Sequence record: PV683228.1
Reading direction: 5' to 3' (one strand)
From: Escherichia phage EcF-vB
Length of the DNA: 64,000 nucleotides
The position numbers and the translations under genes were made by a program. Below, piece by piece: positions 37,446-40,144 of this stretch. Numbering within the stretch: the stretch's first letter is position 1; every line of letters begins with the position of its first letter. The notes beneath the pieces are model-generated. The model was not told the origin of the DNA and ran no database searches. It saw only the letters and a list, made by a program, of their open reading frames with translations.

Positions 37446-40144
37446 ATGGAAAACGTAGATTTTAAAAACTTACATTTAGTTGGTGATACAGAAACTGATG
37501 GTTTACTCCTTGAGTTCACTAAAGTGCACGTAATGGCTTTCGCAGACTATAAATCTGACGATGAAGAGCCGCCTGTATGGGTCTTTACAGATGAGCCTAT
37601 CCTCGGTCACAAGTATACCAAGTACATTAAAGGTGGTTTACGTGAAGGTGTTGAGTTTGCGTTAAAGGCAAAACGTCTTTGCATCCATAACGGTCTCGGT
37701 TATGACTGGTGGGTTTTCAATCACATTGCACCTGATTTATGGAACTTTGATAATCCAAAGTGTAAACCGTGGAGTAATTTCTTTCAGGATTCTCTCATCC
37801 AGTCTCGTGTTCAGTGGATGGATAGACCAACTCCAAAGGGTTATAAAGGTGCTCATGGTTTGGCTGCATGGGGTGCTCGTGTTGGTGTTCGTAAACCAGA
37901 GATTGAACATTGGGGTGTGTGGAATGCAGAAATCTTTACTCGTGTTGTAGAAGATATCCGTATTAACGCCAAAACTAAACGGGCACTTGATAATGAATAC
38001 CTCAAGCTTAAGAAGTGTGGCATAGACACTTATGAAACCTACATGCGAGCTAAAGAGACATCTTTCTGGATGAGCCAGCAAGCTATCAATGGCTGGAAAG
38101 CTGATAAAGAGCTTATGGAGTTCCATGTAAAGGAACTTGACAAGTTGACTAATGAGCTTGCTTCAGAGGTTGAACCACATCTGCCTCCAACTATTAAGAC
38201 TAAAGGTAAAGTTACTGGAGAAGAGTTTGCAAAAGCTTGGAATGAGTATGTTGAAACATTTGGTCATGCAGATGGACTGAAGAGAATTACCAAGTACCCT
38301 AAGACAAAGTACCGTCAGCAGGTACGTAATGGTGAGATGCAGACATACGAAATCAAACCATTTGGTAAGCCAACTACAAAGATTTTTAACATTGAAAAAG
38401 AAATTGCTATACCCCAACCAACTCTGTAACTGGTGAAGAGTACAAGGAAGGTTTTGTAGCAATGAAGGATGCTCGTGCAATTTGCAATGAGTTGAATGCA
38501 AAGATTGGTAAGAAGTGCAAAGACTGGAAACCAGTAAAAACAGTCAAAACTGTGAAGTACTATAACAGCCATGTTGTTAACCACTTTGAACTTGAGTCAA
38601 GTCGCTACACAGGTTTGATTGATGCACCATATACACCAATTGAGTTCGAAGTTTCTCGTATGACTCAGGTAGCAGTTGTTAAAGACTACTTGAAATCAGT
38701 TGGTTGGATTCCAGATGACTGGAACTACAAGAAAGACTCAGATGGTCGCCCTGTTAAGGTTTGTCGTTTCAAAGACAACAAAAAGATGATTACCAAGCAT
38801 CCTAAGTGGCAGGAGATGGTTGAACGGTGTGGTTTAAGCTATGTTGAGCACGAAGGTGTACAGTACATTGAGCATAACTGGTCTGTTAAGAAGTACACAG
38901 ATTTGCTTGAACCTTGTCTGATTAGGACTTCACCAAAACTTACTGAGTCATCTTATGATACGATTGAAGGTGAACTTGGACAGAAGATTGCTAAATACTA
39001 CACTTTGATGCACCGACGCAGAACTATTGAGAACTCAAAGGATGATGAGAAAGGTTGGCTAAACCAGATTCGTCCTGATGGTCGCCTTAGTGCTGGTGCA
39101 ATGGTGTTTGGTACTTCAACTGGACGTATGACACAATATGGTATTGTAAACGTACCGTCTGGTGCTGCTGTCTATGGAGCACCTATGAGGGAGGTTTGGA
39201 TTTGCGAGGAAGGGACTAATGTTGTCTCTGTTGATATGAACTCAGCCCAGCTAGTTCTTCTTTGTAACTTTATGGGTGATAAAGAGTTCACTAAAGCGGT
39301 AACACAAGGTAAAGAAGAGATTGAGTTTATTCGTCAAGAAGATGGACGCTATTACTGTAAACATTTTGATGAGTACCTCAACCCAGAGATTGATAAGTAC
39401 CTGCGCTATGACTCTGAGAATGACTTGTACGTTGTCTATTCAGGGACTGATGCGCATACACTGAATAGCATTTACTTTAACTTGAATGATGAGCAGGACA
39501 TCTTGACTTGTCGAGCTACTCAGGATGAGAATCTTCTTCATGAGATTAGCAAAGGTCGCAAGAAAGCTAAGAATGGTATCTATGCACTACTGTTCGGTGC
39601 AGGTGACGAGAAGTTTGCTAAGACGATTAAAGCTGCAACTACTCAGGAAGGTGCACTGACTAAACAGACTTACTTTATTCGTTTGCCTAAAATTAAAAAG
39701 CTGCTAGATGACTTGGAAGCTGACTACAAAGCAACTAAAAAGGCACTTGAAGAGGTGTTTGGTAAGACTGCTGCAATCTCTAAAGGGGGCTTTGTAAAGG
39801 TTGCTGGAGCTTGGTTGTGGTGTAAATCTCCACATAAGTTATTGAATTATTTGCTCATGGGTTCGGAAAGTCAGATTCAGAACGAGGCAATTAACCTTGC
39901 TTGTCGTCGTATGATTGACGAAGGCTTGATGAAGTTGAATGGTCGTAAACCAGCTATTGGTGCTCGCTTACTCTGCGCATATCACGATGAAACGAGTTGG
40001 GAATGCCCAGAAAGTATGACGGCAGAGGTGAAAGCAGTTACTGACTGGTATTATGGGCAAGCTTCTAAGAACTTAGGTCTTAAGAAAGAAACACTTGTTA
40101 CAGGTACTGGTAAGGTTGGTAAAAGCTGGTATGAGGTACACTAA
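37446..40144 (+). CDS. DNA polymerase, family A, split into two ORFs (to 38429 and from 38462) by a -1 frame break
   Basis: Exo motif DTETDGL; polymerase motifs SVDMNSAQL, RKKAKNGIYALLFG, YHDE; the second frame is open from 38396; one extra base in the A5 run 38395-38399 (or the C4 run) fuses them. Confidence 0.8.

Follow-up and report, generated by a model that had tools for sequence, protein, structure and literature searches.

The polymerases closest to the one described here are those of the Felixounavirus phages, in which the exonuclease and the polymerase are carried on one polypeptide encoded by one coding sequence (906-909 aa). A single uninterrupted polymerase CDS of 2700-2730 nt is present at the same position in the phages ULIM8, UAB_Phi87, VpaE1_ev035, finno, mio and Bas63 (JohannRWettstein). 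Among the solved structures the best match to the polymerase is gp5 of phage T7 (E = 2.5e-9). In the Felixounavirus Bas63 the genes for DNA replication group together with the essential ones and were essential in 83% of the scorings, a value that applies at the level of the gene category (PMC11482910).

The DNA analysed in the present study, hereafter the window, is a 64-kb stretch (64,000 nt) of Escherichia phage EcF-vB (PV683228.1). This sequence comes from a Felixounavirus, a Felix O1-like myovirus of enterobacteria, and is matched by more than 260 GenBank phage records, the best of them with a nucleotide identity of about 95-96% and none being identical. Its polymerase locus contains two ORFs, ORF1 (37416..38429; 337 aa), which ends in ...FNIEKEIAIPQPTL directly before its stop codon (also given as ...KIFNIEKEIAIPQPTL), and ORF2 (38462..40144; 560 aa), the frame of which is displaced by -1 relative to ORF1. 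The -1 frame is open from position 38396 and both frames overlap at 38396-38429. An A5 run (38395-38399) and a CCCC run (38412-38415) were both seen in the window, and the whole span from 37416 to 40144 comprises 2729 nt, i.e. 2730 nt minus one base. The ORF coordinates, the reading frames, the start of the open -1 frame and the overlap given in a preliminary description of the locus all agree with the sequence.

ORF1 contains the motifs Exo I (DTETDG) and Exo II (HNGLGYD) that correspond to the DxE and NxxxD patterns of DnaQ-like exonucleases, the latter motif pairing with HNGHKYD of the exonuclease domain of T7 gp5 in the alignment. The Exo III motif of DnaQ-like exonucleases could not be located with confidence in the polymerase sequence, and the match to the Pfam profile RNase_H_2 remained below the threshold (17.2 bits compared to 22). 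ORF2 contains the catalytic motifs A (VDMNSAQL, with Q in the place of the acidic E), B (RKKAKNGIYALLFGAG, which resembles RxxxKxxxYGxxYG and is aligned with RDNAKTFIYGFLYGAG of T7) and C (YHDE, including the expected HDE), and matches the family A profile DNA_pol_A (PF00476) with 57.3 bits at a gathering cut-off of 34.3. Both ORFs also match the PHROG DNA polymerase profile phrog_17, ORF1 at positions 658-893 and ORF2 at the next positions, 894-1232. Each of the two ORFs corresponds to one half of a single family A (T7-like) DNA polymerase.

The alignment with T7 gp5 is anchored at query residues 86-162 (T7 54-132) and 392-439 (T7 314-359). The break at residue 328 falls between the T7 residues 139 and 314, on the thumb side of the polymerase domain. 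Judging from these anchors the exonuclease domain would end about 100 residues before the break, which would lie in the part matching the gp5 thumb. The preliminary description had assigned an exonuclease motif to ORF1 and the motifs A, B and C to ORF2, as was also found here, but its picture of a split into clean exonuclease and polymerase modules does not hold since the break at residue 328 is inside the polymerase domain.

According to a tblastn comparison the finno polymerase matches the window in two frames, with its residues 1-325 in frame 3 (99.7% identity) and its residues 325-906 in frame 2 (99.0% identity), the two segments abutting at 38396-38399. A two-frame match of this kind is far more than chance would produce. 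A 201-nt query across the junction (38300-38500) matched 217 GenBank phage records, from which a spread sample of 60 was inspected. The matched segment measures 202 nt instead of the 201 nt of the window and lies under a single polymerase feature in 57 of the 60 records. The first of the three exceptions, Citrobacter phage Mordin (81% identity), has the extra base as well, given that query positions 1-199 span 200 nt, and shows a single polymerase feature. The other two are unannotated drafts, namely GE_vB_B3 (UNVERIFIED) and GE_vB_NS7, where the match spans 196 nt. The draft of Salmonella phage GE_vB_B3 (MG969406.1, positions 141-271) was observed to have lost another single base in the same purine run (GAAAGAG compared to GAAAAGAG), and for this reason the purine run of the polymerase gene seems to be an error-prone stretch in sequencing.

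The comparison of polymerase lengths among relatives that the preliminary description had suggested thus yields one CDS of 2700-2730 nt (also given as 2721-2730 nt) in all well-annotated relatives examined, and two separate ORFs conserved across the relatives were looked for but not found. A conserved two-ORF polymerase was ruled out, as every annotated relative has one CDS and 57 of the 60 sampled records have the extra base.

Some phages encode family A polymerases in two genes. A polymerase truly consisting of two cooperating polypeptides, a 337-aa fragment containing the exonuclease and a 560-aa polymerase fragment starting at the ATG at 38462, could draw on the sequence AAGGAAGG, which is located 9 nt upstream of this ATG and could serve as a putative Shine-Dalgarno sequence. 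However, AAGGAAGG and the ATG are ordinary coding sequence in the relatives (Y-K-E-G-F-V-A-M), and the two-ORF layout occurs in no well-annotated relative. Furthermore, the cut at residue 328 is made inside the polymerase domain (thumb region), away from the exonuclease/polymerase boundary, the two-piece form would lose 21 residues (329-349 of the repaired protein), and the window holds nine similar deletions besides this one. Neither of the features expected of a naturally split polymerase, i.e. two conserved ORFs and a split at the domain boundary, was observed, and two cooperating polypeptides are regarded as extremely improbable.

Compared to 15 aligned relatives the window has exactly one base fewer at 38398/38399 (relatives CATTGAAAAGAGAAATTG; window CATTGAAAA-AGAAATTG). 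The relatives themselves occur in two forms, GAAAAGAGAAAT and the natural variant GAAAAAAGGAAT, which is found in Bas63 and four IMG/VR contigs; both encode E-K-R-N. These intact versions were detected in 11 and 4 IMG/VR contigs, respectively, while the exact pattern of the deleted version had no match in IMG/VR, the JGI metagenome contigs and the GTDB genome contigs. The exact proteins of ORF1 and ORF2 were likewise not found in a collection of 15 billion proteins. The addition of a G, as in most relatives, or of an A, by which the run becomes A6 and comes near to the Bas63 variant, restores ...IEKRNCYTPTNSV... as in the relatives, and the repaired protein of 909 aa is the same for either base.

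Based on this comparison the true sequence presumably is either GAAAAGAGAAAT with its G lost or GAAAAAAGAAAT with A6 read as A5, both of them encoding E-K-R-N. With respect to the commonest sequence of the relatives the base that is missing is a G with A runs on both sides and thus lies outside any homopolymer. The reading of A6 as A5 requires a synonymous change of AAG to AAA; this change is seen beside AGG in the Bas63-type genomes, whereas the exact combination is unseen. The repair by one base to a protein of about 900 aa proposed in the preliminary description is borne out for the A5 run, where the relatives (906-909 aa) are one base longer, but not for CCCC at 38412-38415, which had been named as the alternative. 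A repair at the latter site was ruled out because the relatives show a substitution (ACACC) and no indel there; the A to C change at 38413 converts ACA to ACC (Thr) and is synonymous in the polymerase frame only. The out-of-frame tail of ORF1 exists solely because of the missing base. The coordinates of the polymerase gene and of the further broken genes are compiled in Table 1.

Table 1. Features of the polymerase locus and of the other broken genes in the window (positions of the 64-kb window; ~ marks the approximate site of the lost base).
Feature	Position	Strand	Remarks
finno_30 homologue (small early gene), broken, C3 to C2	3340..3346, ~3343	-	
i-spanin, broken, C4 to C3	7957..7966, ~7960	-	
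Nicotinamide phosphoribosyltransferase (NAMPT; 593 aa in finno), broken	17970..17978, ~17974	-	T6 in relatives, T5 in window (+ strand)
Anaerobic ribonucleotide reductase (NrdD), T5 to T4 in first codons	24236..24246, ~24240	-	
GIY-YIG homing endonuclease, broken, two T6 to T5 losses (~30088, ~30298)	30084..30302	-	
5'-3' exonuclease (346 aa in finno), broken at residue 294, T6 to T5	30693..30701, ~30697	-	
5' part of predicted single DNA polymerase gene (codons 1-328: 3'-5' exonuclease domain and start of polymerase domain)	37416..38399	+	frame 0; finno residues 1-325, phrog_17 658-893, Exo I/II
TGA stop of -1 frame	38393..38395	+	upstream limit (38396) for one-base repair of polymerase gene
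Site of missing base	38395..38399	+	A5 run of window in GAAAAAGAAAT; relatives GAAAAGAGAAAT (most) or GAAAAAAGGAAT
3' part of predicted single DNA polymerase gene (codons 329-909 and stop; thumb, fingers, palm; motifs A, B, C)	38399..40144	+	-1 frame; finno residues 325-906, DNA_pol_A, phrog_17 894-1232, T7 gp5
Out-of-frame tail of ORF1, EIAIPQPTL and stop TAA (38427-38429)	38400..38429	+	relatives: RNCYTPTNSV
DNA ligase, broken at residue 73, T3 to T2	41826..41833, ~41830	+	CTCTTTG to CTCTTG
finno_115 homologue (conserved structural-module gene), cut short, T6 to T5	62339..62347, ~62343	-	

The search for frame breaks was extended over the window at the protein and the DNA level. At the protein level 96 finno proteins were compared to the window by tblastn, which revealed switches of the frame at nearly 100% identity in the i-spanin, the nicotinamide phosphoribosyltransferase, the GIY-YIG endonuclease, the 5'-3' exonuclease, the DNA polymerase and the DNA ligase, as well as terminal losses in NrdD and in the homologues of finno_115 and finno_30. 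Apart from the deletions the proteins of the broken genes are 98-100% identical to those of the relatives, and neither premature stops arising from substitutions nor insertions were seen in this tblastn comparison of the finno proteins with the window.

At the DNA level the raw count of megablast gaps with lengths other than multiples of three proved misleading, owing to compensated gap pairs in divergent patches, and was replaced by the net shift per cluster: gaps were clustered, and a cluster was retained only if it produced a net frame shift within a finno CDS. In comparison to finno the window shows ten uncompensated frame-shifting events in nine conserved genes including the polymerase, and all ten are deletions of 1 nt. 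Nine of them shorten a homopolymer (T6 to T5 in five cases, and T5 to T4, C4 to C3, C3 to C2 and T3 to T2 in one case each). These nine are losses with respect to finno, mio and Bas63, and each was confirmed against two or three relatives. The frame-breaking indels in conserved genes are thus biased in direction (10/10 deletions) as well as in context (9 in homopolymers). Runs of at least five bases account for 2.2% of the genome and contain six of the ten deletions (binomial P about 2e-8). When the DNA-level test was applied to mio and Bas63, it gave one event for mio, five bases away from where a small hypothetical gene starts, and none for Bas63, and the protein-level test gave none for either phage.

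One-base differences were also observed in the intergenic DNA of the window, namely the loss of one base from an A6 run at 59426 and others at 8044, 8550, 42792 and 46903. The homopolymer-length spectrum was considered as a global signature of errors but does not discriminate, as six-base runs occur 6.25 times per 10 kb in the window compared to 6.2-8.6 times in the relatives. Homopolymers of more than six bases are absent from the window, finno and Bas63, and mio contains a single 7-base run.

The set of broken genes includes the polymerase, the DNA ligase and the 5'-3' exonuclease and, since replication genes are mostly essential in Bas63 (PMC11482910), a viable phage carrying all of these lesions is implausible. 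Taking into account that the lesions are deletions only, nearly all of them in homopolymers, that they are scattered over genes otherwise conserved at 98-100%, and that replication genes are among those broken, we consider it very probable that the split of the polymerase is an artefact and that the real gene is a single ORF of 2730 nt encoding a 909-aa family A polymerase. The cause would then be technical rather than mutational, as the pattern of the lesions in the sequence suggests.

One base of the purine run at 38395-38399 would have been dropped from the consensus by base calling or assembly, and the same under-calling of short runs, mostly from six to five bases, would account for the nine further deletions in eight other conserved genes. 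ORF1 and ORF2 would accordingly be no separate genes, neither the 10-codon tail of ORF1 nor the ATG at 38462 would have a meaning, and no biological mechanism would be needed for the frame break in the polymerase. Under-calling of homopolymers is typical of flow-based or nanopore chemistry, or of an unpolished assembly. Two observations speak against an artefact: at the polymerase site, unlike at the other nine, the base lost relative to the commonest sequence of the relatives is a G between A runs, and real mutations likewise concentrate in homopolymers.

The ten frame-breaking lesions in genes otherwise conserved at 95-100% could also be taken to mean that the deletions are real and that the genome is defective or decaying, either as a non-viable variant of the population or as a chimeric consensus of a mixed stock, with the polymerase being a pseudogene. 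Decay would, however, be expected to leave mixed types of lesions, whereas deletions exclusively, nearly all in homopolymers, are the signature of a technical bias; in addition, the proteins are otherwise 98-100% identical to those of the relatives, with no stops introduced by substitutions and no insertions. A decaying genome is therefore considered very unlikely.

As another possibility, the deletion might be real in the isolate and a low level of full-length polymerase might still be made by -1 slippage. The E. coli tRNA-Lys slips readily on A-rich sites such as A_AAA_AAG of dnaX. In the window the tRNA-Lys on AAA (38397-38399) might re-pair with AAA (38396-38398), and the subsequent reading of AGA AAT TGC would lead back to the ancestral E-K-R-N-C. 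A -1 shift on A_AAA_A would yield the protein of the relatives with no altered residue, and the junction peptide of the full-length polymerase would span ...NIEKRNCYTPTNSV.... Slippage of the RNA polymerase on the A run would be an alternative route if the deletion is real, but with five A residues the run is short for slippage of this kind.

On the other hand, the zero-frame codons ATT GAA AAA GAA provide the heptamers T_GAA_AAA or A_AAA_GAA and no canonical X_XXY_YYZ, so only the Lys tRNA would re-pair. The frameshift site is not conserved either, as the ORF is continuous in the relatives, and full-length polymerase at a level of a few percent would put the phage at a severe disadvantage. 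Moreover, slippage would leave the other nine frame-breaking deletions of the window unexplained. Neither the slippery heptamer of a programmed -1 frameshift nor a conserved need for frameshifting in the relatives was found. A real deletion with slippage supplying some full-length polymerase thus appears improbable, and it is more doubtful still that the deletion is real in a viable phage whose essential polymerase would depend entirely on non-programmed -1 slippage of tRNA-Lys on A_AAA_A for its synthesis. If this were true, spontaneous recoding at a site that has only just arisen would have rescued an essential replication gene in a naturally occurring phage.

With the artefact as the preferred reading, a single DNA polymerase should be annotated at this locus, and its frameshift should be either corrected or marked; the nine other sites of the window call for the same treatment. 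The frame break adds nothing new on phage replication, and the gene is a standard Felixounavirus DNA polymerase.

Several features were observed in the neighbourhood of the polymerase gene and elsewhere in the window and its relatives. In Bas63 (JohannRWettstein) a putative homing endonuclease gene is located directly 3' of the polymerase gene (30207-30734), and the NrdD gene of the same phage is put together from two parts that flank another homing endonuclease (46630-49516). An HNH endonuclease was detected within the region of SapYZU01 that matches the polymerase, and no homing endonuclease insertion adjoins the polymerase in the window. Two small paralogous ORFs follow 3' of the polymerase gene (72 aa, 40206-40424; 77 aa, 40612-40845); both start with MTL... 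and end with ...GERV/IxIxxLL, and the number of such genes varies among the relatives.

The region 235-5280 of the window contains five to eight repeated intergenic cassettes of 50-95 nt between small early genes on the minus strand. On the coding strand they consist of a G+C-rich hairpin (GGGAGGGAATGACCTTCCCC) followed by CTAGGAGATTCAAAAATG (Shine-Dalgarno sequence and start), and they are also present in finno. The cassettes probably represent terminator, promoter or ribosome binding site modules. No tRNA genes were detected in the 64-kb window using ARAGORN.

In comparison to gene 5 of T7 (family A; PDB 1T7P, 6N7W), the polymerase of the window shares the order of the domains, with the N-terminal 3'-5' exonuclease preceding the polymerase, and Exo II, the thumb, the fingers and motif B can be aligned. 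The similarity is, however, only distant, and the protein of the window is longer by about 200 residues and contains insertions.

With programmed -1 frameshifting of the dnaX type (A_AAA_AAG) the locus has in common an A-rich lysine codon context and the prediction that a -1 shift would yield a functional product. In contrast to dnaX the window lacks a zero-frame X_XXY_YYZ sequence, and the site is not conserved among the relatives with their continuous ORF. The resemblance to homopolymer errors of flow-based or nanopore sequencing concerns the restriction of the lesions to single-base deletions, their concentration in the longest runs of the genome (shortened from six to five bases) and their scattering over unrelated genes, although the polymerase site fits this pattern under one of its two reconstructions only.

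The comparison with the polymerases of Felixounavirus, such as those of finno (finno_82, QHR72218.1), Bas63 (bas63_0047, QXV81738.1) and UAB_Phi87 (AFQ96139.1), reveals the same gene arrangement, in which the polymerase gene is divergent from two upstream genes on the minus strand and is followed downstream by small ORFs and the DNA ligase. On either side of the break the proteins are 99-99.7% identical, and after repair the polymerase also has a matching length (909 aa). The copy in the window differs in being one nucleotide shorter at 38398/38399, and it is due to this nucleotide that the polymerase of the window reads as two ORFs.
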